Shown: positions 8,666 to 48,133 of the stretch, one piece after another | Layout of the letters: every line of letters begins with the position of its first letter | Position numbering within the stretch: position 1 is the stretch's first letter | Assembly (NCBI GenBank): GCA_041660005.1 | Contig: JBAZXG010000002.1 | Coordinates: 122,037-186,036, forward strand | Source: Patescibacteria group bacterium | GTDB taxonomy: Bacteria; Patescibacteriota; Patescibacteriia; GWA2-46-9 | Direction: 5' to 3' | DNA length: 64,000 nt | The notes under the pieces: model-generated | Seen by the model: only the letters and a program-made list of their open reading frames with translations | Databases searched by the model: none | What the model was told of the DNA's origin: nothing | Translations under genes and position numbers: made by a program

Positions 8666-8688
8666 ACTTTTCTTAGAAAAGTTTTTAG

Positions 8689-30210: not shown

Positions 30211-30240
30211 TCTCCGGCCTCTGGCCGGAGTTTATTTTTG
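30211..30240 (+). terminator. recA terminator (ctccggcc-tc-tggccggag + TTTATTTTT) overlapping the start of R2 copy 2
   Basis: Perfect 8-bp stem followed by T-run. Confidence 0.65.
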
Positions 30241-30390
30241 CCTAACCACCTCGTCGGCTTGCCGCGAGGTTACCGTTGCAGAAGACAAAAATATCCCGCG
30301 TAGCTCCCTGACCGTCCGTAGCCTTGCTGTGTCCCGCCGTAGTTTTATACGAGCGGGAGCGAAGGAGGTTAGCGAAGTGGGATTACCTAT
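30231..30390. repeat. R2 structured element, copy 2 (expanded by an internal insertion of about 70 bp)
   Basis: tttatttttgcctaaccacctcgtcggcttgccgcgagg ... gcgaagtgggattacct. Confidence 0.8.
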
Positions 30391-30522: not shown

Positions 30523-31007
30523 AACCTCGCCCCGTCTGACGGGGCTGTGGGTTGCCTACTTTCTTACTCGCCTAAGAAAGTAGGCGGAAAGAACGGCGCC
30601 CCTGTGTCGACACTATCGTCGGCGAACGTTCCTCAGTGCGGGTGGCGACAATGAACTCGTCTTCGTCTCAAACAGCATCGTCGCTTATTCACCCGCACTT
30701 CGTCCGTTCGCTCTCCTCGGTCGGCAATGGGGTTTGGCAGAGTGAAGTGAACAATTCCTTTAGGAAACGGCCGTGGTAACGGGAGCGGCGTCTACGGTGT
30801 TTATTTGCAGTTGATAATTTTTGACTTGCAGTTTTGACTTTTGCCTTTTGATTTATAATTTCTGCTAGCCCATACAGCTCGAGGACGTTATGTTTATGTA
30901 ATGAAACTCCTACAGGATCGGCGTCGGTAATGACCGAAGAGGAACATTCAGGGCGGGATTTCTTTCACCTCTTTCCTTGTCTAAACAAAGAAAGGAGTAC
31001 GGTTTCT
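30523..31007. repeat. R1 composite structured element, copy B
   Basis: hairpin ctactttctta-ctcgcc-taagaaagtag, module gacaatgaactcgtc...caaacagcatcgtcgc, gttgataatttttgacttgcagttttg, cagctcgaggacgttatg, ctcctacaggatcggcgtc, terminal hairpin. Confidence 0.8.
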
Positions 31008-31228
31008 TGCCGTATATAAAGAAATACTATAAGGTGTCCTGGCTTGATCGTCGGTGTGGGTTGCCAAACCGCCATAGAGGTACGCTTCACCGCTCTCTGT
31101 GGGCATCTTATCACCACGATCTCGCCTGCCGGGTACCGTTCTTTCACAAAGAGGACGGTGCCCGGCGCAACATTTTTAAAACACAAAACCCCTCGAGTAC
31201 TCGAGGGGTTTTGTTTACTGTAAAAAAT

Positions 31229-31798
31229 TTAAGCGCGTTCTACGTACTCGCCTCGTTCGGTATTCACGCGAATGATGTCGCCTTCTTTTACAAAGAGAGG
31301 AACATTCAGGGTAGCACCCGTTTCAAGCTTGGCAGGTTTCAAAACGGCACCTTGAGCCGTGTCGCCCCGCGCGCCCGGTTCAGTTTCAATTACCTTGAGT
31401 TCAACTTTTTTAGGAAGCTCAAGGTTCATCGGTTTATCATTGTAGTAGAGTACATCAACCGTTTCCCCATCTTTAAGATAGTCCGACTTTCCACCAATAA
31501 GAGATTTAGGCAGAGAGAATTGTTCAAAAGTTTCTCCGTCCATAAAATGGAACTGGTCAGTTTCACGATAGAGGTAGCTCACTTTCTTGCGAGCGAGGTC
31601 GGCTGTTTCAACGCGATCCCCGGGTTTAAAACTAATTTCTAAGACCTTACCCGTGATGAGGTGTCGCATTTTTGTCTGCATCACTGGTTTACGCTGCTGC
31701 ATGCGGACAAAGTGCGCTTCCAGTACAATATACGGCTCACCTTCGTAATTGATGACGAGTCCGACTTTGATGTCGTTTAAGGTAGAAGTAGTTCCCAC
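31229..31798 (-). CDS. efp: elongation factor P
   Basis: KVGLVINYEGEPYIVLE, KPGKG-equivalent loop, three OB domains. Confidence 0.9.
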   Translation of the reverse strand: MGTTSTLNDIKVGLVINYEGEPYIVLEAHFVRMQQRKPVMQTKMRHLITGKVLEISFKPGDRVETADLARKKVSYLYRETDQFHFMDGETFEQFSLPKSLIGGKSDYLKDGETVDVLYYNDKPMNLELPKKVELKVIETEPGARGDTAQGAVLKPAKLETGATLNVPLFVKEGDIIRVNTERGEYVERA

Positions 31799-31804
31799 AG
31801 CCGT

Positions 31805-32053
31805 TTATTGATTAACGTACGGAAGAAGCGCCATAACCCGTGCGCGCTTAATCGCCATCGATAGTTTGCGCTGATGTTTGGCACAGACGCCGCTCTTTCT
31901 GCGGGGAACAATTTTTGCGTACGAAGAAGTAAACCGTTGTAGTGTGCTCGTTTCTTTGTAGTCGATGTCGGTAATGCCGTTCATGCAGAACTGGCAATGC
32001 CGATCTTGCGCCATTGATGTGCTGTTTTGAGTACGTGTGTTTCTTTGTTGCAT
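31805..32053 (-). CDS. rpsR: 30S ribosomal protein S18
   Basis: [12 protein letters not shown]...[17 protein letters not shown]. Confidence 0.9.
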
Positions 32054-32062
32054 AGTCGTTAA

Positions 32063-32512
32063 CTAAAAAGGAATATTTTCAAGTTGAATTTCGTCTTCTT
32101 CGTTTGGTGCTGATTGTACGCCCTCGTCACTGCTCGGTTGTGGTGTGCTCGGTCGGAAGGGGCCGCCGGCTGCGTCGCCAGATCGGTCTAGCATGATGAA
32201 ATTTTCAGCGACGATTTCTGTGCGACTTCGTTTGGCACCATCCTGGCCTTCCCATTCGCGGGTTTGCAATCTCCCTTCAATGTATACTTTTCTTCCTTTA
32301 CCAAGGAAACGTTCGGCAATCTCGGCTAATTTCCCCCAGGCGACGATATTGTGAAATTCAGTTCGTTCCTGCTTCTCGCCCGTAGGCGTTTTCCACGAAC
32401 GGTTTGTAGCGACACCGAACGTAGTGACATTCTGCCCAGAGGGGGTTGCTCGTGTTTCAGGATCGCGTGTCAAGTTCCCAATGATCAGAACTTTATTGAG
32501 ACTCATTGCCAT
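32063..32512 (-). CDS. ssb: single-stranded DNA-binding protein
   Basis: OB-fold LNKVLIIGNLTRDPE..., acidic C-terminal tail DEIQLENIPF. Confidence 0.9.
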   Translation of the reverse strand: MAMSLNKVLIIGNLTRDPETRATPSGQNVTTFGVATNRSWKTPTGEKQERTEFHNIVAWGKLAEIAERFLGKGRKVYIEGRLQTREWEGQDGAKRSRTEIVAENFIMLDRSGDAAGGPFRPSTPQPSSDEGVQSAPNEEDEIQLENIPF

Positions 32513-32548
32513 ACTTTTTTGTTACTAGGTAAACAAAAATGCTTATGA

Positions 32549-33004
32549 TTAAAGTTCGGCACTCTCTTCCAGAATTTTGGAGAGTTTCTGGTCAAGCTCT
32601 TCAGCGCTGATGGCTGGGCTCACCTTCTTGCTCGGCGTTGGCGTGTCAATGTGCTGCTGACGACGTGCCGCTAGGCGGTCGCGTAAGGCCTGCTCTCGGT
32701 CTAGTGTTGCCTGACTCTTAATCGGTTTTTCAATGATGAGGTGGCGCAGAATTTCTTGGGACAGTCGGAACGTATCGTTCAGTTTTGCCATTACCGCAGG
32801 GTCTGCACTAAATTCAATCAGTCGGTAGTAGCCGTAGCGCTGGTTTTGAATGGGGTAGGCCAGGCGTTTCTTTTCCATGTTGACTTCGTGCGTAATTTGG
32901 CAGTTCTGCTGTTGCAGCTGCTCAGTTACTTTTGCCACAATAGGGGCGGTTTCTTCCTCGGTCATGGTTGCCGGTAGAATGTAGACGAGTTCGTAGCGTT
33001 TCAT
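32549..33004 (-). CDS. rpsF: 30S ribosomal protein S6 (with C-terminal extension)
   Basis: MKRYELVYIL start at 33004 (the listed 209-aa ORF has a spurious upstream extension); rpsF-ssb-rpsR operon order. Confidence 0.85.
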   Translation of the reverse strand: MKRYELVYILPATMTEEETAPIVAKVTEQLQQQNCQITHEVNMEKKRLAYPIQNQRYGYYRLIEFSADPAVMAKLNDTFRLSQEILRHLIIEKPIKSQATLDREQALRDRLAARRQQHIDTPTPSKKVSPAISAEELDQKLSKILEESAEL

Positions 33005-33200
33005 GGGCTCTATAAGAAAAAAATAAAACGGCCTCGTGTCGACGCCGCTCAACCTTACTAGAGTAAGGGTGCTTCGTCGGACCCCGATGTATATCGGGGT
33101 GTCCCGATCAGTTGCCGGGACACAAAGACGTGTAAAATAATGTAGCCACACCCTACCATGGCCACTGGCGTTTTGCAAGCCCTATGTCATACTGGCCTTT

Positions 33201-34421
33201 ATGAAAACCTATCTCTTTATTTTTGGTCGGCATCCGGCACTTTCTTTGGCAGAACTCTACGCTTTTGCTGAAACAGAACAATTAACCCTAACCGTTACCG
33301 GGTTGTCGTCAGAAGTGGCAGTAGTTACCGGTATTCCTGAAGCACAAGCCGAAACACTGCTCATGCGTTTGGCGGGAACGATTAAAATTGCGGTTGTACT
33401 CGGTTCTCTCGTGCCGCCGGAGAAAAACGATGTTGTAGCCTGGACGAACCTATTGCAGCCGTTTGTAAAAAATCATCCGTTGCGTTCCTTTGGTATGAGC
33501 TATTATGGTGCAGCACAGTTGTTGCCCGGGGTAACACCACAAGAACATATCGCCTTAACTCTTAAAAAAGAATTTCGTGAGGCGTCCGGAAAAGTACGCT
33601 GGGTGAGCGGGCGAGGCAAACCATTGAGTTCGGTGCAGGTCGACAAAAATCACATGGTTGGCGAAACGGGGAGTGAATTTATTATTGCTGTAAGCAGTGC
33701 CGAAGAGGCGTATATTGCAAAAACACTTTCCGTACAGCCTTTTGAAGACTGGAGCAACCGTGATTTTGGTCGACCATCGCGTGATGCGCGCTCGGGCATG
33801 CTGCCGCCGAAGCTCGCGCGGCTCATGGTGAATTTATTAGGGCTTCCGCATGAGGGGACGCTTCTTGATCCTTTTTGCGGATCAGGCACCGTACTCATGG
33901 AGGCGCTGCTTTCTGGCTGGACTTCTGTCATCGGCTCTGACAAAAGTGCAAAAGCAGTTATGGATTCTCAAAAAAATATGGAGTGGTTAAACAATAGTCA
34001 ACGTATTGCGACTAGCGGGTGTTCTTTTTTTACTCGTTCAGTAGAGGAACTGACTGCCCTCATTCCAGAGCGTTCAGTTGCAGCTATAGTTACTGAACCA
34101 GATCTCGGACCAGCGCTTCGTGAACCGCCAACGACAGAGGAGGCGATGCGTATAGCGAAAACATTAGTGCCCCTCTACAAGCAAGCGCTTGAAACTTTTG
34201 CGCACATTCTTTCTCCGGGCGGTCGGGTTGTTATAGTGTTCCCTTGCTGGATCACTCAAGACCATGAAGAGGTGGTCTTGCCTTTAAGAGAAACCGATCT
34301 TCCCACAGGTCTTCGTGAACGGTTGCTCCTTGATTGGTCAACTACAAAGAATACTTTTATCTATCGCCGACCAGACCAATTTGTGGCGCGAAAAATTGTT
34401 TCCTTTGAAGCTGTTTTGTAG
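33201..34421 (+). CDS. THUMP-domain class I SAM-dependent RNA methyltransferase
   Basis: SAM motif LLDPFCGSGTVLMEA; N-terminal ferredoxin-like/THUMP region. Confidence 0.65.
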   Translation: MKTYLFIFGRHPALSLAELYAFAETEQLTLTVTGLSSEVAVVTGIPEAQAETLLMRLAGTIKIAVVLGSLVPPEKNDVVAWTNLLQPFVKNHPLRSFGMSYYGAAQLLPGVTPQEHIALTLKKEFREASGKVRWVSGRGKPLSSVQVDKNHMVGETGSEFIIAVSSAEEAYIAKTLSVQPFEDWSNRDFGRPSRDARSGMLPPKLARLMVNLLGLPHEGTLLDPFCGSGTVLMEALLSGWTSVIGSDKSAKAVMDSQKNMEWLNNSQRIATSGCSFFTRSVEELTALIPERSVAAIVTEPDLGPALREPPTTEEAMRIAKTLVPLYKQALETFAHILSPGGRVVIVFPCWITQDHEEVVLPLRETDLPTGLRERLLLDWSTTKNTFIYRRPDQFVARKIVSFEAVL

Positions 34422-34508
34422 GGTAATTGCTTACCCCAAAATGGTGTGCGGTGGTATAATAAACAGCACAGATTTCAACGATATATCTTACAGAAAGGGG
34501 GTGACGGT

Positions 34509-34754
34509 ATGAAAAATCTTCATTTTGTGACTTTTCTTCTCCTCGTTATTGGTGGGTTGAATTGGCTACTTTTCGGACTGTTTGGTTGGGAAATAGGAGC
34601 ACTATTGGGTGGTATGGGGGCAGTACTGTCTCGTATCATTTACGTACTTGTCGGTTTGTCGGCAATCTACGAAGTTGCGACACACAAAGCGTCTTGTAAG
34701 CAGTGCGAAACGAAAGCATCTTCATCGCAGGCGCCCATGAGTCACAGCATGTAG
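34509..34754 (+). CDS. DUF378-like small membrane protein
   Basis: Two TM helices with GGLNWLLFGLFG motif; start at MKNLHF. Confidence 0.5.
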   Translation: MKNLHFVTFLLLVIGGLNWLLFGLFGWEIGALLGGMGAVLSRIIYVLVGLSAIYEVATHKASCKQCETKASSSQAPMSHSM

Positions 34755-34900
34755 TTATTGTTGTGTGGGTATTGAACTGCCTCGACGTTATGTCGGGGCA
34801 GTTTTATTTTTGCCGAGGATAGTGAGTGGAGTACAAACAGTAATTTGTATTTCCGAACGACGCAGGCATCAAAGGGTTTAGTATCCATGTATTATGTTTT

Positions 34901-34936
34901 TTACACCATTTTGTGCGTACGCACAAAATGGTGTAA
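34901..34936. repeat. 36-bp perfect palindrome P, copy 1 (TTACACCATTTTGTGC-GTAC-GCACAAAATGGTGTAA)
   Basis: Identical sequence at 47900..47935; flanking tattatgttttt is also shared in inverted orientation. Confidence 0.9.
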
Positions 34937-35025
34937 TTTGACACTTACGTAGCTCTGCCGCGTCGCCTTTCTCAATACGCCGGTGGGCGTATTGAGGGAG
35001 CCAGGGCTTTGCCTTGAGGTAGTTG

Positions 35026-35058
35026 ATATGCAATTGGGGCGTCGTTCGTGTTCTACGA
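35026..35058. terminator. GC-rich perfect hairpin ggggcgtcgttcgt-gttctac-gaacgacgcccc just downstream of the dapA-like gene (minus strand)
   Basis: 14-bp perfect stem. Confidence 0.5.
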
Positions 35059-35098
35059 ACGACGCCCCACATCGGTTCTTCTCGGCTTTGGCTGGCCC

Positions 35099-35975
35099 CT
35101 AATCCAGCATGCCGAGTTTTCGGAGTTCACGCCCGAGCAGTTCCATCGCCCCTGTGCTCATGGGCGTGAGTGGCAGGCGAACGTAGTCGTTGCAGAGTCC
35201 CATCATGGCGAGCGCGGCCTTGATGGGGATCGGGTTGGTTTCAAGAAAGAGGGCCCTCATCAGCGGGAGCAGATGGTAGTGAGTGGCTCTCGCTCTCGGT
35301 AAGTTCCCCCGCTGCAGGTGTTCCACCATGCCGACGAACGCCTCCGGGAGGAGATTCGAGAGAACTGAGATCACTCCATGCCCCCCGACCGACATGATGG
35401 GTAAGGTCAACCAGGAAGTCCGGGCCGCAAGCCTTGATGACATCCATGGTCTTGTTGAGAGACCCAGTGGCCTCCTTGAGTCCCACCACCTCCGGGATCC
35501 GTGTGAGTTCCACCATCGTTGCTGTTTCAATCCCGACACCAGTCCGGCCGGGAATGTCGTAGGCGATGAGTGGAAAGCCGGGTACGGCTGCGGCTATTGC
35601 GCGAAAGTGCTCGATGATGCCTTGTTGTGTGGGCTTGTTGTAATAGGGGCTGATGATCAGCGCCCCGTCAGCGCCTGCGTCCTTCGCCGCCCGAGTGAGC
35701 GCAGTCGCCTCAGCGGTCGAGTTCGACCCTGTGCCGGCGATGACTCGTGCGCGCCCATTCGCTGCCTCGACGACGATTCGAATGATGCGCTCTTGCTCTT
35801 CGCGTGTGAGCGTTGCTGCTTCACCAGTCGAGCCGCACGGCACGAGTCCTGGTACACCAGCGGCGATCTGCAGCTCCACAAGTCGTCGGAGTGCTTCCTC
35901 GTCGACTGACCCGTCTTTCTTGAATGGAGTTACGAGCGCGGTCGCAACTCTAGTGATTAGATCTGTTCTTGCCAT
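35099..35975 (-). pseudogene. dapA: 4-hydroxy-tetrahydrodipicolinate synthase (DapA) with a frameshift, GC-rich
   Basis: ORF 35241..35975 encodes the N-terminal two thirds (GSTGEAATLTREEQ...VIAGTGSNSTAEA, YYNKPTQQG). ORF 35099..35539 in another frame encodes the C-terminus (LTLPIMSVGGHGVISV...ETNPIPIKAAL). Frameshift lies near 35440-35470. Confidence 0.7.
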
Positions 35976-36123
35976 GGCGTATGTCCTCCAACCTCAGTGA
36001 ACTTTTTTAAGGAGCGCTGCCGCTTCCTGTGACACAATCGTAGGGAAATCTTAAAAAACAAGGAATTTTTCATATACCTAATACATTTTTGATACAATTT
36101 GTAATATTTGATACAATATAGAT

Positions 36124-36792
36124 ATGTTAAAAGTATCTACGTCTGTTGAAAAATTAGTTCTCTCCTCAGAGGTAACGCTTTCTGCTCTCACGAGCGGTCA
36201 ACTTAATTTAACGGCTTATGCGCGTTCTATTTTGCCAGCAATTAAAGAGGAAACAAAAAAAGCAGTAAAACTAGGGAGCATTGTTACCGCTCTCTCACGG
36301 CTCTCACGAACCGTTACTCACGTCGCTCCCTTAGTGCCGCGAGTTGTACTCCTTGATGTCGCTGTTCGCCTTGGACTCTGTGAACTTGTTTATAACCGAA
36401 CCGAGGAAAACTTAATTCGACTGCGCAATATATATCATAATCAAAAACTCAGAACTGATGACGTACTCGCTATGTCAGTCGGAACCGATGAAGTAACCGT
36501 TTTTGCAACCAACGCTGCTATCTTGCATATACGTCGTTACTTTGGCAGCGAAAAACCGAAAGTGCATCTCGACGGACTCGGTAGTTTGACTGTTCGTTTT
36601 AGCAATGACTACATCAAAACGCCTAATGTCATTTTTGCTTTGGTGCGCAGTTTGGCGGTTCGGCGCATTAACATCGTCGAAATAATTTCCGCCTATACCG
36701 AACTGACGTTCATTCTTCAGGAAGCTGACCTAACGCGTGCGCTTGAAGTAGTAACGAATGATTTTCGCGATACTTCGAGCGCTCGATCTTAG
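36124..36792 (+). CDS. hypothetical protein (possible tandem ACT-like regulatory domains)
   Basis: 222-aa ORF; weak beta-alpha-beta-beta-alpha-beta periodicity; no firm motif. Confidence 0.35.
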   Translation: MLKVSTSVEKLVLSSEVTLSALTSGQLNLTAYARSILPAIKEETKKAVKLGSIVTALSRLSRTVTHVAPLVPRVVLLDVAVRLGLCELVYNRTEENLIRLRNIYHNQKLRTDDVLAMSVGTDEVTVFATNAAILHIRRYFGSEKPKVHLDGLGSLTVRFSNDYIKTPNVIFALVRSLAVRRINIVEIISAYTELTFILQEADLTRALEVVTNDFRDTSSARS

Positions 36793-37850
36793 TGTGTTGG
36801 TGCAAAGCGGAAGTGGGCAACGTCGCCATCCTGCATAGTGTACGTTTTGCCTTCAAGACGAATGAGTCCTTTTTCTTTAGCTTTTGCTTCTCCGTTAGCT
36901 TCCACAAGGTCAGACCAAGAAATAATTTCGGCGGCGATAAACCCTTTTTCAAAGTCCGTGTGAATAACACCAGCGGCCTCAGGCGCGCTGGCTCCGCGGT
37001 GAACGGTCCAAGCGCGGCTCTCCATTGGCCCAGCAGTGAAAAAGGTAATGAGATCCAGTAGTTCATAGCTTGCCTGGATGAGGCGATCTAACCCAGATCG
37101 CTCCCAACCAAGCTCTTGGAGATAGTGCTTGGCATCTTCCGGTTCTAGCTCGACAAGTTCAGATTCAATTTTTGCAGAGATAGCAATTGCGTTGCTGTCA
37201 GACACTTTTTTCACATCTTCCTCGGCAACATTTTCAACAACCAGAAGCGGCTTGGCGGTCAGGAGATTTAGTTGTTTCAGTATTTTTTTCTCTTCCTCAT
37301 TTACCTCAACTTCCCGCGTTGGTTTCTGTGCGTCAAGCGCACTGGCTAATCGACGGAGAAGATCCAATTCTTTGGCAGCTGTTTTGTCGCCGCTTGTGGC
37401 TTTGCCCTCGGTAGCTTTTATGCGCCTACTCACGGTGTCCATATCGGCAAACGCCAGCTCAATACCGATAACAGCGCGGTCGCGTGCGGGGTCAGGGGAG
37501 CCCATAACGTGCATAATATCGTCGTCTTTGAAGTTACGCACCACTTCAATAATCGCATCAACTTCCCGAATGTGAGACAAAAATTTATTCCCGAGACCCT
37601 CGCCTTGGTGCGCCCCAGCAACGAGCCCGGCGATATCAACAAACTCAATCACTGTGTGGACAATTTTTTTAGACTCGGCAACACGAGCAAGTTCTGCCAG
37701 CCGATGGTCGGGCACGGTAACCACGCCCACGTTTGGTTCAATCGTAGCGAATGGATAATTTTCAATCGTTACCTGTATTTTAGTAAGCGCCTTGAAAAGC
37801 GTTGATTTGCCAACATTGGGGAGTCCGACGATGCCAACCTTGAGCGACAT
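36789..37850 (-). CDS. ychF: ribosome-binding ATPase YchF
   Basis: MSLKVGIVGLPNVGKSTLFKALTK, TGS C-terminal domain. Confidence 0.9.
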   Translation of the reverse strand: MSLKVGIVGLPNVGKSTLFKALTKIQVTIENYPFATIEPNVGVVTVPDHRLAELARVAESKKIVHTVIEFVDIAGLVAGAHQGEGLGNKFLSHIREVDAIIEVVRNFKDDDIMHVMGSPDPARDRAVIGIELAFADMDTVSRRIKATEGKATSGDKTAAKELDLLRRLASALDAQKPTREVEVNEEEKKILKQLNLLTAKPLLVVENVAEEDVKKVSDSNAIAISAKIESELVELEPEDAKHYLQELGWERSGLDRLIQASYELLDLITFFTAGPMESRAWTVHRGASAPEAAGVIHTDFEKGFIAAEIISWSDLVEANGEAKAKEKGLIRLEGKTYTMQDGDVAHFRFAPTH

Positions 37851-37946
37851 ACGTAAAATTCATGCGAATGAATAATGTGCCCAATAGCATACAAGGTGTT
37901 GGCAGCTTTTGCTAGGGCGGCATCTTGTTATTCATGAGTGCTACTG

Positions 37947-38104
37947 GATCGCCGCACTTGCGGCAGCGTCTTATTCTTAATGAGCGCTGTTGATCGCCGC
38001 ACTTACGACAGCGTTTCGTTCTCGGTAAGTGTTGTTGACCCTGCACTTGTTCGGCAGCGTCTCGTTATCAATCGGTACTATAGGATCGCTGCACTTACGG
38101 CAGT
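37947..38104. repeat. degenerate tandem repeat, about 4 units of about 45 bp (GATCGCCGCACTTRCGRCAGCGTYT...)
   Basis: Units begin at about 37947, 37992, 38037, 38084; intergenic between ychF and the exonuclease gene. Confidence 0.7.
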
Positions 38105-38145
38105 AAAAGGGGTGTGAAGAGTGGCAGAGCTCGCGATTTTGCGCT

Positions 38146-38676
38146 ATGGTCAGATACATGACCCAAAACGATTCTCGACCACACATTGTTCTCGATATTG
38201 AAACAACCGGTTTTTATTATGCCGGCGGGGACGAGATTATTGAGCTTGCTGCCGAGCGCGTTGTCAACAGAGTAGTGGTTGATCGATTTCACGCGTTTAT
38301 TCGGCCCTCAATAGCGGTGCCACCAGCTGCGACCGCGGTGCATGGTTTGACTGATACGTTTCTTGCTGAACATGGCAGCGATGCTGCTTCAGTGTTTCAG
38401 GATTTTGCAAAGTTTGTCGAGCAAGGCATTTTGGTTGGGCATAACATTCGCAATTTTGATTTTCCATTTCTGGAGCACCACTTTTCTCGACATGGTTTGG
38501 TCATGGAAGCATTGGACTTGGTTGACACGCTGGAGCTTGCTCGTCGGCAACTCCGTTTATTAAATTACAAACTTGGAACCGTTGCGACACACTTTGGCAT
38601 TGATAATCGTGGTGCGCATCGAGCTGACCGGGATGTTGAAATTACCCGAGAAGTTTTTTTGCGATTGACAGCGTAA
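38146..38676 (+). CDS. DEDDh 3'-5' exonuclease (DNA polymerase III epsilon-like)
   Basis: Exo I VLDIETTG, Exo II HNIRNFDFPFL, Exo III HRADRD. Confidence 0.8.
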   Translation: MVRYMTQNDSRPHIVLDIETTGFYYAGGDEIIELAAERVVNRVVVDRFHAFIRPSIAVPPAATAVHGLTDTFLAEHGSDAASVFQDFAKFVEQGILVGHNIRNFDFPFLEHHFSRHGLVMEALDLVDTLELARRQLRLLNYKLGTVATHFGIDNRGAHRADRDVEITREVFLRLTA

Positions 38677-38748
38677 GGTTTCAACAATAAGATACTGACG
38701 TTTCCAAGTAGGTCTATGTGAAGAATCCCACTAGGAGGAGGACGCGCC

Positions 38749-39330
38749 ATGGGTTCACTATTGTTTGAGTTTCAGTTGGAGCCCGATTTTCTGACGCCCG
38801 AGCAGTACTTCGGCAAGCTTCGGAGCAAGAGCGGTCTAGAATCAGAGCACCGCTTATATCTAGCGGTTCTACAGGATGCACTGGAGTGTTTCCAGAAATA
38901 CCTAAACGAAAGCAAGGGAAAGCATCGCCGGCTTTTCCTGGACGCCGAAGCATGGTTTGCGAGCGAGGACGCGGAGGGACTCTTCGCTTTCGAGGTCGTT
39001 TGCGAAGCCTTGCGGATCGATGCCGAGTACATTCGTCGGGGGCTCGCTGCGTGGCGGAAATCTGCGCAGCCGCGAAACGTGCCTACTCCAAAAGAGCCGC
39101 CACCGGCTCTCGGTCCCGAGATCAGGTGCCAGCGTTGCCACTGGCGCGAACGTATGAAGCAGCGTCAGAAGCACAGCCCAGGGTACGCTACGCCGCCGAT
39201 CATCTGTACGGCCTGCAATACGTACTTTGTGCAGCTGCTCGACAGGGGCAAGGTCGTGAGCGAGGAGGGGTTTGTTCAAGAGTTCCCTTACCAGGGCCAA
39301 AGGGACACGAAGCCACGCCGCGCAACATAA
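38749..39330 (+). CDS. hypothetical protein with C-terminal Cys4 zinc ribbon (CQRC...CTAC), moderately GC-rich
   Basis: Strong RBS ggaggagg; palindromic hairpin gccgcgcaac-ataaa-gttgcgcggc immediately downstream. Confidence 0.4.
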   Translation: MGSLLFEFQLEPDFLTPEQYFGKLRSKSGLESEHRLYLAVLQDALECFQKYLNESKGKHRRLFLDAEAWFASEDAEGLFAFEVVCEALRIDAEYIRRGLAAWRKSAQPRNVPTPKEPPPALGPEIRCQRCHWRERMKQRQKHSPGYATPPIICTACNTYFVQLLDRGKVVSEEGFVQEFPYQGQRDTKPRRAT

Positions 39331-39390
39331 AGTTGCGCGGCGGCTCCCTTTTCAAGAGAATATCGGACCTGTGCTACACTGTACCCCACC

Positions 39391-41082
39391 ATGGCAGAGA
39401 AAAATCCTCAAACAATATTAAACGACGTGTTCGGCTACCAAGCATATCGTCGTGGGCAAGAAGATGTTATCGCGGCTCTACTAGACGGACGTGATGCTCT
39501 GGTCGTTATGCCAACGGGCGCCGGGAAATCACTTTGTTATCAATTGCCGTCATTGCTATTACCCAGCCTTACTATCGTTGTTTCGCCCTTGATTGCACTC
39601 ATGAAAGACCAAGTAGACGATCTTAATCGCCGCGGCATTCGGGCAACATTTATTAACAGTTCACTTTCGGTTAGTGAACTCAAAAAGCGCACCGAAGAAG
39701 TTCTTGCCGGTCAATATAATTTGCTCTATGTCGCCCCAGAGCGGTTTTATGACCAAGCGTTTGTGCAGCAACTACAAGCTCTGAAAGTTTCATTACTGGC
39801 AATTGACGAAGCGCACTGCATTTCTGAGTGGGGCCATGATTTTCGGCCGAGCTATCTGCGGTTGCATATTGTTGCTGAAGCGCTTGGTCGTCCACCGATT
39901 GTCGCGCTGACCGCCACCGCCACCCCTGACGTTCGGGACGATATTATAAAAGCACTGCAGCTTCGGAACCCTTTGGTTATGGTAACGGGTTTTGATCGGC
40001 CAAATTTGACCTACGGCGTCGTTCGCGCCACACCTTCAGAGAAAATAGGAAAAGTATTGGAATTAATTGAGCGTGTACCTGGACCAGCAATTATTTATGC
40101 AGGTACGCGTGATTCTGTTGATACGTTGCGTGAGGTTTTAGAAGTTAATGACATCAACGTGGCCGCATACCATGCGGGCATGGATAAATTAGACCGGGAA
40201 ACCTCGCAGCGGCGATTCATGACTGATGAGGCGCGTGTTATGGTGGCGACCAATGCCTTTGGCCTCGGTATCGACAAGCCGAACATTCGCTTGCTGGTGC
40301 ATTTTGATTTGCCAGGAACACTTGAGGCCTATTACCAAGAAGCTGGACGCGCCGGACGTGACGGTAAGCCAAGTTACGCCGTGCTCTTATATCATCCGTC
40401 CGACCGGTACCTTCGTGAATTTTTTATCGATGGAGAAAATCCGTCGCCGGAACTCATTCGTGAAGTGTACCGTTATTTAACACAACAGGTCGGAGAGGTT
40501 ATTCAGACAACGTACAGCGAAATTCTTGGTGCTATTGCCATGAAAGCGCCGGACCTGGCGGTGAGTACCGCCATGAAGATGCTGGAGCATGCTGGGTATA
40601 TACGACGTCCACGGGAAGGGGAGATTGAAGCGCGATTGCAGCTGTTGCAGCCAGTTGGTGACGTGGACAAAGCGGTTCTACCGCGCGCTAAAGTGCAGCG
40701 TCAAGTTTGGGAGTTACTGCGCGACCGTCACAGGGACGTACTCGAGGCAGGGTTTCGGTTTTCTGCTGAAGATCTTATTCGCAATACCGATGTTTCTCGC
40801 GAAGCTATTGGCCGTTCACTACGCGCACTAAACGACAAAGGACTTTTGGTTTATCAGCCGCCGTTCCGTGGTCAAGAAATACGGTTGCTGAACCGCGTTA
40901 GTCCTGAAGAATTGGCGCTCGACTGGGTGGCGCTCAGAGCAAAACGTCGTCGCAGCGAACAGAAGTTAGCGCTTATGGAAACCTACGCCCACACTTCAAA
41001 TTGTCGCCGATCGTATGTTTTGCGCTACCTGGGTGACAGTGCCGCGCCCGAAACTTGTGCCGCTTGTGACAACTGTCTTTAA
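39391..41082 (+). CDS. recQ: ATP-dependent DNA helicase RecQ
   Basis: Q-motif, PTGAGKSLCYQLP, DEAH (AIDEAHCISEWGHDFR), RQC zinc domain (CRRSYVLRYLGD...CDNC). Confidence 0.9.
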   Translation: MAEKNPQTILNDVFGYQAYRRGQEDVIAALLDGRDALVVMPTGAGKSLCYQLPSLLLPSLTIVVSPLIALMKDQVDDLNRRGIRATFINSSLSVSELKKRTEEVLAGQYNLLYVAPERFYDQAFVQQLQALKVSLLAIDEAHCISEWGHDFRPSYLRLHIVAEALGRPPIVALTATATPDVRDDIIKALQLRNPLVMVTGFDRPNLTYGVVRATPSEKIGKVLELIERVPGPAIIYAGTRDSVDTLREVLEVNDINVAAYHAGMDKLDRETSQRRFMTDEARVMVATNAFGLGIDKPNIRLLVHFDLPGTLEAYYQEAGRAGRDGKPSYAVLLYHPSDRYLREFFIDGENPSPELIREVYRYLTQQVGEVIQTTYSEILGAIAMKAPDLAVSTAMKMLEHAGYIRRPREGEIEARLQLLQPVGDVDKAVLPRAKVQRQVWELLRDRHRDVLEAGFRFSAEDLIRNTDVSREAIGRSLRALNDKGLLVYQPPFRGQEIRLLNRVSPEELALDWVALRAKRRRSEQKLALMETYAHTSNCRRSYVLRYLGDSAAPETCAACDNCL

Positions 41083-41087
41083 ACGTT

Positions 41088-41981
41088 ATGCATATTATTA
41101 ACGGAAGAAAAGTAGCAAAAGAAATAACTGGTCTTATTCGTCAGCGGCTCTCTCAAATGCCCGAACCTTTGTCATTTCATTGTTTGTTGGTTGGGGACGA
41201 TCCTGCGTCGCATCTTTATGTTCGGCGTAAAGAAAAAATGGCGCGTAGTTTAGGCATAACTTTTACCTTGCACCATCTTCCGGCCGATGCGTCAGTGGAG
41301 TCTATAATTAAAAAAACGAATGAGCTGAATCAACTGCAGCATGGTTACATTATTCAGCTGCCCTTGCCGCCGGCATTACGCCCTGAAACCAATGATCTCT
41401 TGCAACATATCGATCCTGCCAAGGATGCTGACGGTCTTACAGAGATTAACCGAAATCGATTTTTAGAGGATCTACCCGGTGCGTTTTTACCAACACCAGT
41501 CGCCGCAGTCATGGCTCTGGTTTGCTCCCTCGAAGATAGTGATTATTCGTACCTGCCATTTATGAAGGACGCTGCTCTTGCCGTCGTTCCTGAAATGCTG
41601 CAGCAAAAGAAAGCAGTTATTATATCGGACGGAGACGTGTTTGGCCCGACGCTCGCCGTGGCGCTCGAGCGTGCGGGTATGAGCCCGAGCGTTGTTAGAA
41701 GCGATAGTCCTACTTGTGCCGAAGCAACTGTTATAGCGGATCTCGTGGTGAGCGCTGTTGGGAAACCCGGCTTAATTAACGGAGCGATGGTGCAGATGGG
41801 TGCGGTTATTATTGATGTCGGTACAACACTCGTTCAAGGACACACCGTTGGTGATGTTGATTGGCAAAGTATTTCCAACAAAGCGTATGCGGCAACTCCA
41901 GTGCCTGGCGGCGTTGGACCGGTAACAGTAGCGATGTTGTATGCGAACCTTCTCTATCTTGCTACTAGAAAGAGTGCTTAG
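41088..41981 (+). CDS. folD: bifunctional methylenetetrahydrofolate dehydrogenase / methenyl-THF cyclohydrolase
   Basis: IINGRKVAKEI..., YVRRKEK, TPVPGGVGPVTVAML. Confidence 0.9.
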   Translation: MHIINGRKVAKEITGLIRQRLSQMPEPLSFHCLLVGDDPASHLYVRRKEKMARSLGITFTLHHLPADASVESIIKKTNELNQLQHGYIIQLPLPPALRPETNDLLQHIDPAKDADGLTEINRNRFLEDLPGAFLPTPVAAVMALVCSLEDSDYSYLPFMKDAALAVVPEMLQQKKAVIISDGDVFGPTLAVALERAGMSPSVVRSDSPTCAEATVIADLVVSAVGKPGLINGAMVQMGAVIIDVGTTLVQGHTVGDVDWQSISNKAYAATPVPGGVGPVTVAMLYANLLYLATRKSA

Positions 41982-43309
41982 CTGATTGCAAGTTCTGGGT
42001 AGAGGGGGTGTGCAGCGGTAAGTTCTTTCACTACTTTTCGTGCATCATTTTTTACCGTGTCGGATTCGGGGTTCTGCAATACCGTGGCAATTATTTTTCC
42101 AATGCGCCGCATATCGTCTTCGGTAAAGCCGCGAGTGGTTAGAGCTGGCGTACCTAGACGAATACCTGATGGATCCATTGGTTTTCTTTGATCGAAAGGA
42201 ATCATGTTTTTATTCACCGTTATGCCAACCTCATCGAGAAGTGTTTCGGCGACTTTTCCTGAAGTCGAAGTGTTAGCAAGATTAACGAGGATGAGGTGGT
42301 TATCCGTGCCGCCGGTGACGAGCGTCAGTCCGGCTTCGGTGAGTGACTCAGCGAGCGCCTTAGCATTTTTGACGATACAGTGGCCGTAGTCGATAAATGT
42401 TTTTTCTTGCGCCTCTTTTAGGGCGACCGCAATTGCTGCCGTTTGGTGATTATGTGGTCCTCCTTGGAGGCCGGGAATGATCGCTGCATCAATAAGGCCG
42501 GCCAAATCTCGCTTGGTGTTGCTGTGGTACAGGTCGTGGAAGCGGTCGGCAACTTTCGGTACAAGAATCATTGCCCCGCGCGGACCACGTAGCGTTTTGT
42601 GCGTCGTCGTCATTACGATGTCAGCATAAGGCACCGGGCTTTGATGGTCACCCGAAATAATAAGGCCGGTAATGTGTGAAATATCAGCCAAGAGGTAAGC
42701 GTTCACTTCGTCAGCAATACTACGAAAGGCAGCAAAGTCAAAAGCTCTTGGGTAAGCCGTTGCGCCACAGATGATGAGTTTGGGGTTTTCTTTTTTTGCA
42801 ATGGCGCGGATAGCATCGTAGTCTAAACGCTCTGTAGTTTTATCGACGCCGTAGCCGACTGATTTATAAAATTTTCCAGAAAAGTTAAGCGAGTAGCCGT
42901 GTGTGAGGTGCCCACCCTGAGCGAGTTCCATCCCGAGTACGGTGTCTCCGGGGTTTAGAAGCGCAAAGTAGACTGCTTGATTTGCCGGAGATCCTGAGTA
43001 GGGTTGCACGTTGGCGTGTTCAACGCCGAAGAGTTCTTTGGCGCGCGCTCGACAAAGCTCTTCAATTTGATCGATGTACTGATTGCCGCCATAGTAACGT
43101 CTGCCGGGGTAGCCCTCCGAGTACTTGTTGGTGAGTACTGAACCCAATGCTTCCATGACGGCAAGAGAGGTAAAGTTTTCGGAAGGTATCATTTCAAGGC
43201 CAGTGCGCTGGCGATTGAGTTCGTCAAAAATTAGGCTCGAAAGCGTAGGGTCCGTTGTCATCAGGTTTTTCATATAGTTCATCCTAGACGCCGTTTGCAG
43301 TACTGTCAA
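41978..43309 (-). CDS. glyA: serine hydroxymethyltransferase
   Basis: MIPSENFTS, TTHKTLRGPRG PLP lysine motif. Confidence 0.92.
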   Translation of the reverse strand: MTVLQTASRMNYMKNLMTTDPTLSSLIFDELNRQRTGLEMIPSENFTSLAVMEALGSVLTNKYSEGYPGRRYYGGNQYIDQIEELCRARAKELFGVEHANVQPYSGSPANQAVYFALLNPGDTVLGMELAQGGHLTHGYSLNFSGKFYKSVGYGVDKTTERLDYDAIRAIAKKENPKLIICGATAYPRAFDFAAFRSIADEVNAYLLADISHITGLIISGDHQSPVPYADIVMTTTHKTLRGPRGAMILVPKVADRFHDLYHSNTKRDLAGLIDAAIIPGLQGGPHNHQTAAIAVALKEAQEKTFIDYGHCIVKNAKALAESLTEAGLTLVTGGTDNHLILVNLANTSTSGKVAETLLDEVGITVNKNMIPFDQRKPMDPSGIRLGTPALTTRGFTEDDMRRIGKIIATVLQNPESDTVKNDARKVVKELTAAHPLYPELAIS

Positions 43310-43452
43310 AACAGTTCTTGGTTAGTTGCTTTCACTAACAAAGAGACTACGCCGCACGTTTCTAGCCAAGGGTTGCTTCATCGCTTTCTAACAGGTACAC
43401 TTGCTTTATTATTGCCAGTCGTTGACTGGCCCATTTTTTCAAGGGGTAACCA

Positions 43453-44841
43453 ATGAACCCAAGCATATTTCGGGAATACGATATTCGCGGGCTGGTTGAT
43501 AAAGACCTGACCCCTGAGGTGGTGCGCGACATTAGTCGAGCCTACGCAACCTATATGCAACGACGTGGTTTTGACACGGCCATTGTTGCGCGTGATAGTC
43601 GCGATTACAACGCGACCATTCAGAAGCAAACAGTTGTTGCGCTCAGAGAAGCTGGCATGAATGTGGTTGATATTGGCGTTGTGACCGTTCCAGTTTTTTA
43701 CTTTGCTCAACTGTTTTTGAAGATCACCGCTGGGGTAATGGTAACCGCCTCACACAACCCAGTTGGTTGGAGCGGTTTCAAGCAGCTTGTGGGTACGTTG
43801 CAGACTGCAACATCGGCAGAGTTAGCCGACGTGAAGTCACTTATCGAAAAGAAAGATTTCTTGAGTGGTGCGGGCACTTATGAAGAGCGTGGCGGTGTGG
43901 TCGCTGCTTATAGTAAAGACGCACTTTCTCGCGTTACCATCAAGCGACCCTTACGAGTGGTGGTTGACTGTGGTAATGAAACCGGTAGCTTAATTAATCC
44001 CGATATTTTACGGTCGGCGGGGCTTACGGTTATAGAGCAAGACACGGAGGTCGGGAAACCAGCGCCGCATGAACCAAATCCTTCAACTCTTGAAGCACTT
44101 GAGCATATACGTGAAGGCGTGCTTGCCAATCATGCGGATATTGGGATTGGCTACGATGCTGACGGTGACCGTTTTGGCGTTGTCGATGATCAGGGGGAAA
44201 TTATTTGGCCCGATCGCGTGGCCATGGTACTGGTGCGTAAAATTTTAAAGGACAACCCCGGGAGTTCGGTTGTCTTCGATGTAAAATGTACTCAGGCGCT
44301 TATCGATGAGATCGTAAAAGACGGAGGGACTCCGGTGATGTGGAAAACAGGCCATTCTTGGATTCGTCGAAAAGGCCAAGAAGTTGATGCCGCTTTTGCG
44401 GCGGAACGCAGTGGGCATTTTTATTTCCGTCGTGGGCATTGGGGGTATGATGATGGACTGTTTGTGACACTGAAGTTATTAGAAATTATTGCCGCTCAAG
44501 AGAAACCACTGCATGAGTTTATGGCTGATTTTCCACAGTACGAAACATCGCCAGTGTGGCATGCGCCATGCGCGGATGAAGTAAAGTATGCTGTTGTTGA
44601 ACGGTTGACGAAAGCGTGTAAAGAAGAATATGGCGAAGACAAAGTCATTGACGTAAATGGTGCGCGCGTGCAATTTGATGACGGATGGGGGCTGGTGCGG
44701 GCTTCGTCAAACATTCCTGCACTGGTGCTGGTGTTTGAAGGAAAAACACCCGAGGCACTTGAGAGAATTAGTAAACTTTTTGAAGCCATGCTTGGACGCT
44801 ACCCTGAAATCGCTACGCGCGACCGATGGGAAAGTGGCTAA
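43453..44841 (+). CDS. phosphoglucomutase/phosphomannomutase family protein
   Basis: Active-site TASHNP, metal-binding DADGDR, sugar-binding GESGH-like (ERSGHF). Confidence 0.85.
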   Translation: MNPSIFREYDIRGLVDKDLTPEVVRDISRAYATYMQRRGFDTAIVARDSRDYNATIQKQTVVALREAGMNVVDIGVVTVPVFYFAQLFLKITAGVMVTASHNPVGWSGFKQLVGTLQTATSAELADVKSLIEKKDFLSGAGTYEERGGVVAAYSKDALSRVTIKRPLRVVVDCGNETGSLINPDILRSAGLTVIEQDTEVGKPAPHEPNPSTLEALEHIREGVLANHADIGIGYDADGDRFGVVDDQGEIIWPDRVAMVLVRKILKDNPGSSVVFDVKCTQALIDEIVKDGGTPVMWKTGHSWIRRKGQEVDAAFAAERSGHFYFRRGHWGYDDGLFVTLKLLEIIAAQEKPLHEFMADFPQYETSPVWHAPCADEVKYAVVERLTKACKEEYGEDKVIDVNGARVQFDDGWGLVRASSNIPALVLVFEGKTPEALERISKLFEAMLGRYPEIATRDRWESG

Positions 44842-44859
44842 ATAGGGTAATGTAATATT

Positions 44860-45621
44860 ATGGCAACAACAGAACCAACATTAGAACAAATTTATTTCAT
44901 CGTACTGCCGCTCATTCGCCGAGCCGGGCAGATGCTGGTGGCGCGTCAGCGTGAGCTGTGGGGGAAGAGCGATAAGGAGCGGCACACACGTGGTCAAGAG
45001 ATCGAACAGGAGATTCGCGACTTTCTCGTCTCCACTTTGCAGCTGCTTTTCCCGAACTACGGCGTTCACGGTAAACAAGGGTCAGTGCCGCAGACTTGGC
45101 AGTGGGTAGTAACCCCACTAGACGGTAGCCGCTATTATTTCCGCGGGTTACCACTCTATACCACAGCTATTGCACTTCGGGATAAAGGTGAAATAGTTCT
45201 TGGCATCATTTATCAGCCAGTTACGGGCAATGTTTTTCATGCCTTAAAGGGCGGCGGTGCTTTTATGAATACGCATGCAATAACTGTTTCGAATCAAAAA
45301 GAGTGGGTTGGTACTTCAGCCTATGTTCCTGCCAGTAAACACTTGTTGATTGCCAATAAAGCCGGAGCGGATTGCCACAACCTTGGCGTAACGTCACTGG
45401 GGCTCTGTTATCTGGCGGCCGGTGTTTACGACGTTCTTTTGGTGCCCATTGATATGGCCGGCCTCTTTAGCCAAGCTGCGGGGCTCATTATTGCTCGTGA
45501 AGCAGGAGCAAAGCTAAGCGATGTTTCGGGCGGGGCGCTCGGGGGCGGCGGTAAACTCGATACGCTTCTTGCCGCCACACCAGGGTTGCAAAAAAAGGCA
45601 GTGCAAATTTTTAATAAGTAA
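44860..45621 (+). CDS. inositol monophosphatase family protein
   Basis: WVVTPLDGSRYY (DPLDGT-type) and IMPase fold. Confidence 0.75.
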   Translation: MATTEPTLEQIYFIVLPLIRRAGQMLVARQRELWGKSDKERHTRGQEIEQEIRDFLVSTLQLLFPNYGVHGKQGSVPQTWQWVVTPLDGSRYYFRGLPLYTTAIALRDKGEIVLGIIYQPVTGNVFHALKGGGAFMNTHAITVSNQKEWVGTSAYVPASKHLLIANKAGADCHNLGVTSLGLCYLAAGVYDVLLVPIDMAGLFSQAAGLIIAREAGAKLSDVSGGALGGGGKLDTLLAATPGLQKKAVQIFNK

Positions 45622-45628
45622 TGATTGT

Positions 45629-46423
45629 ATGATTGGCGTCTTCGACTCCGGAGTCGGAGGGCTTACGGTTCTTAAAGAAATTCATAAAGAGCTGCCGGGG
45701 TACGACACGATTTATTTTGGCGACTCGGCCCGTTACCCCTATGGTAACTTGAGTGATGCTGTACTGAAGCAGTATGCAACTGAGGATGCTCAATTTTTGG
45801 TTTCTAAAGGAGCCAAAGTTATTGTCGTTGCCTGTAACAGCGCATCGGTTGCGGCGGGAGATTTGCTTCGTACAAATTTGTCAGTGCCCGTGTTTGATGT
45901 TTCGCGTGCGCCAATAGAAAAAGCACTTCAAGTAACGAAGAATAAAAAAATTGCCGTTATCGGTACGCGCGCCACAATTGCCAGCCATAGACATGAACAA
46001 TTGTTAACCGAAGAGGATAGCTCGGTGAAGGTTTTTGCCGTGGCGACGCCACTGCTTGTTCCGCTTGTTGAGGAGCGTGCCTGGCGCTACCCGGAAGCCA
46101 TGCGCATTCTGCGTCGCTATTTGCGGCCGTTGAAAGACGCTCAAGTTGATACGCTCATCTTGGGGTGTACACACTATCCGCTTATTGAAAAACAGATTCA
46201 GCGCATTATGGGAAAGCGTGTGCATATTGTGAGTTCTGGTCGTGCCACCGCTGAAGCATTGAGGACTTATTTAGAAAACAATCAAGAGAGAGCAGTGGCG
46301 GTAAGTCAAAAAGGGCAGGAATATTATTTTGTAAGCGGGGACGTTCAGCAGTTTAAGCAGACTGCAGCCGAGTGGCTCGGTAAAAAAATTACTGCGACCT
46401 CAGCCGCGGCGCTGAATGTCTAA
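45629..46423 (+). CDS. murI: glutamate racemase
   Basis: IGVFDSGVGGLTV, ACNSAS, GCTHYP motifs; start at MIGVFDSG. Confidence 0.85.
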   Translation: MIGVFDSGVGGLTVLKEIHKELPGYDTIYFGDSARYPYGNLSDAVLKQYATEDAQFLVSKGAKVIVVACNSASVAAGDLLRTNLSVPVFDVSRAPIEKALQVTKNKKIAVIGTRATIASHRHEQLLTEEDSSVKVFAVATPLLVPLVEERAWRYPEAMRILRRYLRPLKDAQVDTLILGCTHYPLIEKQIQRIMGKRVHIVSSGRATAEALRTYLENNQERAVAVSQKGQEYYFVSGDVQQFKQTAAEWLGKKITATSAAALNV

Positions 46424-47807: not shown

Positions 47808-47899
47808 ATGGTATTAACCCCATAGAAAGTCCCGGAGCATTTTATCTGCCACCGAGCGAACTGAAAAAGGGAGTGCGACAGAGCTACGTAAGTATCAAA

Positions 47900-47935
47900 T
47901 TACACCATTTTGTGCGTACGCACAAAATGGTGTAA
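47900..47935. repeat. 36-bp perfect palindrome P, copy 2
   Basis: Identical to 34901..34936. Confidence 0.9.
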
Positions 47936-47962
47936 AAAACATAATAAGTGATATTTAACCCT

Positions 47963-48054
47963 TTATTTTTGCCAATACCTCGTCGGCTTGCCGCGAGGTT
48001 ACCATATACTGAGGCAAAAATATCCCTCGTAGCTTTAGCGAAGTGGGATTACCT
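47963..48054. repeat. R2 structured element, copy 3
   Basis: ctttatttttgccaatacctcgtcggcttgccgcgaggttaccatatactgaggcaaaaatatccctcgtagctttagcgaagtgggattacct. Confidence 0.85.
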
Positions 48055-48133
48055 ATGTATACCCCGTCCCCTTTAGGGCGGGGTAATTGACTTGCCTGCG
48101 TCGGCTCGAAGACCCGGCAGTAAAGTTTTGATC

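Follow-up and report, generated by a model that had tools for sequence, protein, structure and literature searches.

The stretch of DNA analysed here, called the window throughout, comprises 64,000 nucleotides (nt) of the genome of a Patescibacteria group bacterium (GenBank assembly GCA_041660005.1, contig JBAZXG010000002.1, positions 122,037 to 186,036). Between 34.9 and 36.1 kb it carries, on the minus strand, a gene for 4-hydroxy-tetrahydrodipicolinate synthase (DapA, or DHDPS), which converges with the gene of a DUF378 membrane protein on its left and stands head-to-head with the gene of a 222-residue protein on its right. An earlier note, made from the sequence alone, had described a DapA-like minus-strand gene split over two frames, and had taken it, together with its elevated G+C content and a nearby 36-bp palindrome (P), for a second decaying, foreign-looking cassette in the window. 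The split gene is confirmed by our analysis; its disruption and its atypical composition are likewise real, whereas its standing as a foreign cassette is not borne out, as an intact dapA occupies the same place in a relative. We suggest herein, as the probable explanation, that the gene is an ancestral one in a syntenic position, and that in this Uhrbacteria-like Patescibacterium it was recently disabled by a single 20-nt deletion, in the course of ordinary reductive evolution.

When the two frames were joined in silico, a protein of 292 residues was obtained that scored 318.5 bits against TIGR00674, the NCBIfam equivalog model of DapA, for which the cutoff is 206.15. The same joined protein fell under the cutoffs of all other models of the DHDPS family (HpaI-NOT-DapA, 261 against 396.7; NanA and KdgD, far under). 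Because the TIGR00674 cutoff is passed while those of the sister families are not, the gene can be regarded as a true dapA. The sequence of the (beta/alpha)8 aldolase is recognisable end to end (TIGR00674 and PF00701), the repaired protein is 57-61% identical to full-length DapAs, and the motifs GSTGE, PYYNKP, YDIPGRT and GLKEATG, the last of which contains the Schiff-base lysine, are all intact. In an alignment of nine full-length homologs with the window's own truncated open reading frame (ORF) (10 rows; alignment A1), residues K167, T50, Y111/Y112, Y139 and R144 fall in invariant columns. They match the Schiff-base lysine K161 and the catalytic residues T44, Y107, Y133 and R138 of Escherichia coli DapA. 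A ribosome-binding site, GGAGGA, lies 8 nt upstream of the ATG (35975). A scan of 34700-36200 against Rfam returned no lysine riboswitch or other family, the sole match being a chance one of a microRNA to P (E = 0.11).

The break between the two frames is real, but it lies at 35413|35414 and not near 35440-35470, where it had first been placed. In alignment A1, six to seven residues are missing from the window DapA between DF(LV) and (W)LTLPIM(SVGG), at a point where all nine full-length homologs contain the block xSGDDx; the conserved (L/Y/F)SGDD loop that follows strand 7 is thus absent. With the Uhrbacteria DapA introduced below as query, tblastn matched residues 1-188 to 35975-35409, while residues 193-297 matched 35416-35102 in another frame. 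The minus-strand DNA at the junction reads GAC TTC C|TG GTT GAC C, and its simplest reconstruction is a loss of 20 nt. Translation in the first frame stops after 244 codons, the last 57 residues being a nonsense tail, and an uninterrupted frame of ~290 codons is not present. Neither part contains a further stop or frame shift. As the rest of the gene, that is the ATG, ribosome-binding site, motifs, stop codon and 3' hairpin, is intact, the lesion is a single deletion. A homopolymer error, which had been raised as a possible source of the frameshift, or any other single-base error is ruled out by the size of the lesion (~20 nt, seven conserved codons). The annotation fits the same picture: the NCBI locus tags from WC817_02130 to 02145 cover four loci yet only three consecutive protein accessions, as would be expected had dapA been called a pseudogene.

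That both parts are free of stops and that the ribosome-binding site is kept might also be taken to mean that programmed frameshifting yields one functional protein, or that two polypeptides cooperate. We consider this very improbable, since seven conserved codons, including those of the SGDD loop present in 9/9 homologs, are lost at the break, such that even a read-through product would be defective; moreover, no slippery heptamer is found at CTTCCTGGTTGACC, and the intact one-frame gene of the relative represents the norm.

The nearest sequenced relative, Candidatus Uhrbacteria bacterium CG10_big_fil_rev_8_21_14_0_10 (GCA_002793855.1; locus L001, on an 80.7-kb contig), contains an intact dapA (minus strand; its product, of 297 residues, is referred to as P0018) at the same position and on the same strand as the window dapA. 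The order of genes common to L001 and positions 33201-47807 of the window is UPF0020, DUF378, DHDPS, a 221-residue protein, YchF, RNase T, a 138-residue protein, RecQ, FolD, SHMT, PGM, an inositol-phosphatase-family gene, a racemase and MurD. Altogether, 21 proteins are collinear over 26174-46411 (~20 kb) at 36-89% identity, or 57-89% when one hypothetical protein of 36% is left aside. As judged by tblastn, DapA (54-60%) is at the low end of this similarity, beside UPF0020 (57%) and the 222-residue protein (64%). Since an intact dapA is found at the same place in a collinear relative, the window dapA is in its ancestral position and is not a cassette that dropped in. No integrase, transposase, tRNA or flanking direct repeat was found at the edges of the block at 34.9-36.1 kb.

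The DapA sequences themselves point the same way. When residues present in at most 5% of the other sequences were counted, the two sequences of 223 that had most of them in common with the window were the DapA of another Patescibacterial locus, L007 (11 residues), and P0018 (8 residues); the median was 1. A one-residue insertion is common to the window DapA and P0018, and only one other sequence has it. In neighbour-joining trees, the window and Uhrbacteria DapAs were sisters with a bootstrap value of 65% among 123 sequences, which took in three non-DapA proteins, and of 46% among 224 sequences, from which these had been left out. Together with the synteny, these results favour the placement of the window DapA in one Patescibacterial DapA lineage, although the tree in itself is weak.

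From these observations the following course is the most likely. The window belongs to a metagenome-assembled genome closely related to Candidatus Uhrbacteria. Its dapA is the positional ortholog of the Uhrbacteria gene, in a module where it is transcribed divergently from a gene for a standalone ACT protein that resembles aspartokinase beta subunits. A single deletion of ~20 nt has removed the xVxSGDD active-site loop and at the same time shifted the frame, and the inactivation would represent one stage in the reductive loss of genes from a host-dependent organism. The presence of only one lesion suggests that the event was recent, and the population sampled may still be polymorphic for the deletion.

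Several observations weigh against this account, and some of them concern composition. The G+C content is 0.595 over 35001-36000 against ~0.48 nearby, and 0.60 for dapA itself. As the earlier note had suspected, dapA is not backbone-like: its in-frame G+C content at third codon positions (GC3) is 0.68, compared to a mean of 0.471 (standard deviation 0.038) for 44 backbone genes. From its amino acids and the codon usage of the backbone, a GC3 of 0.494 would be expected, so that the observed value stands 4.7 standard deviations too high and amino acid composition is ruled out as the source of the excess. Simple vertical descent predicts a backbone-like GC3; hence, the excess must have another cause. 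Affinity raises a similar difficulty. Among 5.8 billion proteins, the DapAs closest to that of the window are ~61-62% identical, with the best matches from Binatia, Deltaproteobacteria, Myxococcota and bacterium HR30, whereas the Uhrbacteria DapA is 57-59% identical and thus under some of the Binatia and Deltaproteobacteria sequences. The support of the neighbour-joining trees is only moderate, and the L007 DapA falls outside the pair formed by the window and Uhrbacteria. Finally, as to the former role of the gene, none of asd, lysC, dapB, dapF, lysA or other genes of the diaminopimelate (DAP) pathway is present in the 64-kb window.

Such observations could be explained by a foreign origin, either through recent arrival from a GC-rich donor or through in-place replacement by a homolog of higher G+C content (a Patescibacterium like that of locus L013 being one conceivable source), followed by decay. 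The GC3 of dapA is in the same class as that of purD (0.672) in the GC-rich purN/purD island of the window and of several GC-rich window ORFs without family matches, the top database matches (60-62% identity) are non-Patescibacterial, and relatives of higher G+C content that bear the same gene pair do exist (L013, 0.55). Moreover, at four-fold degenerate sites of identical residues, the window and L001 are only 26-38% identical (11 backbone genes and dapA), so synonymous sites are saturated and the excess is either younger than the split between the window and its relative or actively maintained. Nonetheless, the position, strand, promoter region and layout of the 3' hairpin are the same as in the Uhrbacteria relative; the block edges lack an integrase, a transposase and flanking direct repeats, and P marks no boundary; the window DapA has rare residues and an indel in common with the Patescibacterial DapAs; and the search for a donor lineage with the repaired protein, while it did return the Binatia and Deltaproteobacteria matches at 61-62%, revealed no donor closer than ~62% among the 5.8 billion proteins. 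We therefore regard a foreign origin as unlikely.

What counts further against it is that the same GC excess is seen in other genomes. In L001, dapA has a G+C content of 0.55 and a GC3 of 0.58 against 0.476±0.044 (+2.5 standard deviations); in L007, the corresponding values are 0.53 and 0.587 against 0.325 (+4.6 standard deviations); and the dapA fragment of L013 has a GC3 of 0.71, while that of the gene beside it is 0.61. Wherever the dapA/ACT pair occurs (genome G+C 0.42-0.55), dapA is GC-richer than its own genome, and the excess in the dapA of these three other genomes looks gene-specific. The saturation of synonymous sites means that the excess is no leftover of one old transfer, and an un-ameliorated relic of a single ancient transfer is ruled out on that ground. 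The GC-richness of dapA is kept either by a gene-specific cause or by repeated replacement within the clade from GC-richer members. As the intact dapA genes of relatives are also GC-rich, high G+C does not date the acquisition in this genome and, under either cause, is no sign of recent arrival from an unrelated donor.

A second set of observations that speak against the proposed course concerns the deletion itself. The junction is contained in one assembly only, a contig of 238,274 bp common to JGI and NCBI. In an independent assembly of run SRR18595301, Logan contig L010 is 100% identical to the window over 35414-39792 (4379 nt) and ends exactly at the junction, at 35414. A second Logan contig from that run, L011, matches 31185-34919 at 100% identity, and its end falls on the exact centre of P, where a break is technically expected, since P is a 36-bp palindrome and also a repeat. 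Near the junction, no 12-mer or longer sequence is repeated within the window. Because no repeat there accounts for the break of L010, its likeliest cause is a branching of the assembly graph, that is a second sequence variant in the reads of SRR18595301. This variant may be the undeleted allele, and an intact allele may exist, or even dominate, in the population.

The disruption might accordingly be not fixed or not real, with an intact dapA in most cells and the deletion a minority allele or a wrong path of the assembler. The exact end of L010 in spite of perfect identity over its length, the lack of a repeat in the window that would explain a graph branch there, and the single contig across the junction all speak for this. 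Yet a clean loss of 20 nt in unique coding sequence is atypical of read or assembler error, the break of L011 illustrates that such ends are not always due to alleles, and the second path could not be recovered. Moreover, no near-identical intact DapA was found in the protein collection, where, apart from the window's own ORF, the best match reaches 61% identity. We judge this alternative possible but rather improbable, and regard the deletion as real, although possibly not fixed. The loss of an ancestral dapA through one recent deletion is thus the explanation that we prefer.

The features of the locus are given in Table 1.

Table 1. Features of the dapA locus and of related loci (positions are those of the window unless a locus is named)
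Feature	Position	Strand	Remarks
UPF0020/Trm11-like methyltransferase	33201..34421	plus	backbone gene, syntenic
DUF378 membrane protein	34509..34754	plus	left-hand neighbour that converges with dapA; backbone gene
Intrinsic terminator (hairpin and T-tract) of the DUF378 gene	34774..34804	plus	position and part of the sequence match the first hairpin of the relative's spacer
121-nt intergenic repeat holding P	34890..35010		also contains a hairpin with 11-bp arms (34971-34996)
Palindrome P, 36 bp	34901..34936		perfect
Stem-loop 3' of dapA	35035..35069	minus	15-bp arms (35035-35049, 35055-35069), 5-nt loop; dG -34.9 kcal/mol, z = -5.0
dapA pseudogene (4-hydroxy-tetrahydrodipicolinate synthase)	35099..35975	minus	complete from ATG to stop but for a single internal deletion
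dapA 3' part, shifted frame	35099..35413	minus	WLTLPIMSVGGHGVISV ... KLGMLD, then stop
Deletion junction	35413..35414		~20 nt missing (xVxSGDD codons minus one base); basis: alignment A1 and Logan contig end
dapA 5' part, original frame	35414..35975	minus	residues 1-187, ends ...ACGPDF
AT-rich divergent promoter region of dapA and ACT-protein gene	35976..36123		motif ACATwTTTG..ACwwTTTGTwA.A..TGwTAC, conserved in four genomes
Gene of 222-residue protein (predicted N-terminal four-helix domain and tandem ACT domains)	36124..36792	plus	head-to-head with dapA
ACT-protein gene, L001	10001-10666		Uhrbacteria relative
ACT-protein gene, L007	5354-6016		
ACT-protein gene, L013	519-1181		
Second copy of P element	47826..47946		inverted orientation, downstream of murD

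The gene that faces dapA provides further insight into the context in which the loss took place. By itself, its 222-residue product gives no significant match to Pfam, but ACT_7 matches 21 of the 25 members of its family (best E 1.9e-6), and the family profile weakly matches the aspartokinase beta subunit of Corynebacterium glutamicum (E 0.059). The AlphaFold model of the protein (mean pLDDT 89.7) begins with four helices, after which a beta-alpha-beta-beta-alpha-beta unit occurs twice. When this model was compared to the PDB with Foldseek, each of the top 50 matches was an aspartokinase or the regulatory beta subunit of one (E ~4e-8; TM score of ~0.7 relative to beta chains). The protein is thus predicted with high confidence to contain two ACT domains in the arrangement of an aspartokinase beta subunit. 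An aspartokinase catalytic subunit was not encountered: the 222-residue protein has no kinase domain, and none is encoded nearby in the window.

The closest homolog of the 222-residue protein is that of Candidatus Uhrbacteria CG10 (64% identity), and the pair that its gene forms with dapA recurs in three more places, L001, L007 and L013, which makes four Patescibacterial genomes in all. In L007, the identity of the ACT partner is 49%, and none of the other neighbours is the same; in L013, its identity is 51%, and translation of the fragment beside it yields the N-terminus of a DapA. More distant homologs adjoin a GNAT acetyltransferase gene or unrelated genes, and a search of genome contigs for loci related to the 222-residue protein gave no match. 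As the pair recurs and its promoter motif is conserved, dapA is part of a small module and not an isolated stray. The module is presumably related to the lysine pathway.

A broader proposal would join these threads: dapA and the standalone aspartokinase-beta-like ACT protein would form a conserved head-to-head module of one Patescibacteria clade, in which dapA keeps a GC-rich codon signature whatever the G+C of the genome (0.42-0.55), perhaps because relatives of higher G+C have replaced it time and again or because selection acts on this gene in particular, and the window would catch the loss of dapA through a still-polymorphic deletion. In this full form we put it forward as a doubtful suggestion only.

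To the left of dapA, the spacer up to the DUF378 gene measures 345 nt in the window and 120 nt, with two hairpins, in the Uhrbacteria relative. In the window, it contains the terminator of the DUF378 gene, the repeat with P and the 3' hairpin of dapA, in that order, and the extra length includes the P repeat. The hairpin at the 3' end of dapA had been noted before as a 14-bp GC hairpin at 35026-35058; it is real, but its arms are 15 bp long and its position is that given in Table 1. It lies 30 nt downstream of the dapA stop codon, and an analogous hairpin is found at the same relative position in the Uhrbacteria relative. It lacks a U-tract and, as the intrinsic terminator scan detected no T-tract, is not a canonical terminator; it is probably the 3'-end or terminator hairpin of dapA.

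The 36-bp palindrome is perfect, and exactly one further copy (47900-47935) exists in the window, where none would be expected by chance. The two regions that hold the copies, 34890-35010 and 47826-47946, form an inverted-repeat pair of 81% identity, of which the core, ~34872-34960 in the left copy, is nearly identical; both copies sit between convergent genes. The palindrome had been proposed as the left border of the block of elevated G+C. While the elevation is evident, P is no clean boundary, as the G+C content climbs from ~34950, inside the right-hand part of the 121-nt repeat, and drops to 0.22-0.33 at 36000-36150, where the promoter region lies. A role of P as an island boundary or attachment (att) site was considered and rejected: P is present on one side only, its other copy at 47.9 kb has no adjoining GC-rich block, and the spacer of the relative is 225 nt shorter and has no room for the element. 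The P element is thus a small repeat inserted between the 3' ends of two genes, separate from the GC-rich block. Neither its 32-nt and 24-nt cores in metagenome contigs nor its 24-nt core in genome contigs gave a match, and no terminal inverted repeats or target-site duplication of the element were identified.

Next to the second copy of P lies one of three copies of a composite repeat found in intergenic DNA (~100-150 nt, families D1 and D11; 16922-17025, 30233-30390 and 47962-48056); another copy is located between a tRNA-Arg gene and an integrase gene. The latter region (16693-19424) consists of tRNA-Arg(TCT), a phage-integrase-family (XerC/D-like) gene at 17018-18112 and a GC-rich ORF at 18612-19424 (G+C 0.61, GC3 0.785, +7.6 standard deviations, no Pfam match), and looks like a classic integrated element. 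A further repeat family of ~300-450 nt occurs in four copies and both orientations (9285-9666, 30557-30925, 48904-49305 and 59893-60360; 72-93% identical in segments). It contains conserved GC-rich hairpins such as TACTTTCTTGCCCGCACAAGAAAGTA, gives no Rfam match at the gathering threshold and might be a repeat element or an RNA gene. Two tandem 45-nt units, 76% identical, are present at 37947-38036, in the spacer that separates ychF from the RNase T-like gene.

Other parts of the window, and of a related locus, also depart from the composition of their surroundings. The island with a purN fragment and purD (~6.4-8.7 kb) is GC-rich, and its purD (7183-8562; GC3 0.67) encodes the GARS N, A and C domains. 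It is bracketed by 33-nt direct repeats of 91% identity (6314-6346 and 8682-8714), and a second direct repeat pair, of 75 nt, lies just to its right (8590-8664 and 9214-9288). Unlike the case of dapA, the border repeats of this island could be marks of insertion. Another GC-rich block (~0.58), at 57500-58920, contains ORFs at 57812-58117 (minus) and 58192-58920 (plus), neither of which has a Pfam match. The ORF at 38749-39330 (G+C 0.57, GC3 0.67) is in a syntenic position, is 36% identical to the 138-residue protein of the relative, and is a second compositionally odd gene at an ancestral position. In L007, with a backbone GC3 of ~0.33, the other GC-rich genes (3878-4099 and 7622-8553) encode a 73-residue ORF, a sigma-70 region-4 protein and a 158-residue ORF; judging from these, mosaic composition seems common in such genomes.

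High G+C and a nearby palindrome made it tempting to see a decaying foreign island in this region, and a single relative was enough to show the loss of an ancestral gene instead. That the GC excess looks specific to a gene and persists across genomes of differing G+C is a warning that, in these lineages, horizontal transfer should not be called from composition alone. The locus offers a dated example of reductive evolution in Patescibacteria, with one lesion and the partner gene still intact, and indicates that a small module related to the lysine pathway (dapA and the aspartokinase-beta-like ACT protein) is retained by some reduced genomes of this group. If two alleles are truly present in the reads, the loss of the gene would be observed while it is still segregating. 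A search of the literature on dapA or diaminopimelate in Patescibacteria, or the Candidate Phyla Radiation (CPR), returned nothing relevant.

In comparison with known systems, the window gene is closest to its positional ortholog P0018, another DapA/DHDPS of TIGR00674 and PF00701, with which it has in common the fold sequence, the motifs GSTGE, PYYNKP, Y(N/D)IPGRT and G(L/I)KEATG, and the genomic position; it differs in that it lacks xVxSGDD, is out of frame after residue 187 and is GC-richer (0.60 vs 0.55). Single-lesion pseudogenes of biosynthetic genes are familiar from host-dependent organisms with reduced genomes, as in the reductive evolution of Mycobacterium leprae, Rickettsia and insect symbionts, and the loss of dapA is a further case of this well-known kind of event. 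As in those pseudogenes, a small frameshifting deletion has put out of action a metabolic gene of which a relative has an intact copy, and the genes on either side are unharmed. Reductive-evolution pseudogenes usually drift toward A+T and gather several lesions, whereas the window dapA has a single lesion and a high G+C content, and is maybe polymorphic.

The 222-residue neighbour, for its part, resembles the aspartokinase beta subunits of C. glutamicum (LysC-beta; 2dtj, 3ab2 and 3ab4) and M. tuberculosis (AK-beta; 3s1t and 4go5) in the tandem-ACT fold predicted for residues ~75-215 and in that its gene adjoins a gene of the lysine pathway. It differs from them in its low sequence identity (12-18%) and in its extra N-terminal four-helix domain. 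Palindromic intergenic repeats similar to repetitive extragenic palindromes (REP) or miniature inverted-repeat transposable elements (MITE) occur in bacteria, and the P element is like them in that a short perfect palindromic core is set in a repeat of 90-120 nt between convergent genes, at both copies. Unlike REP and MITE families, it is known in two copies only and has no match in the public collections scanned.

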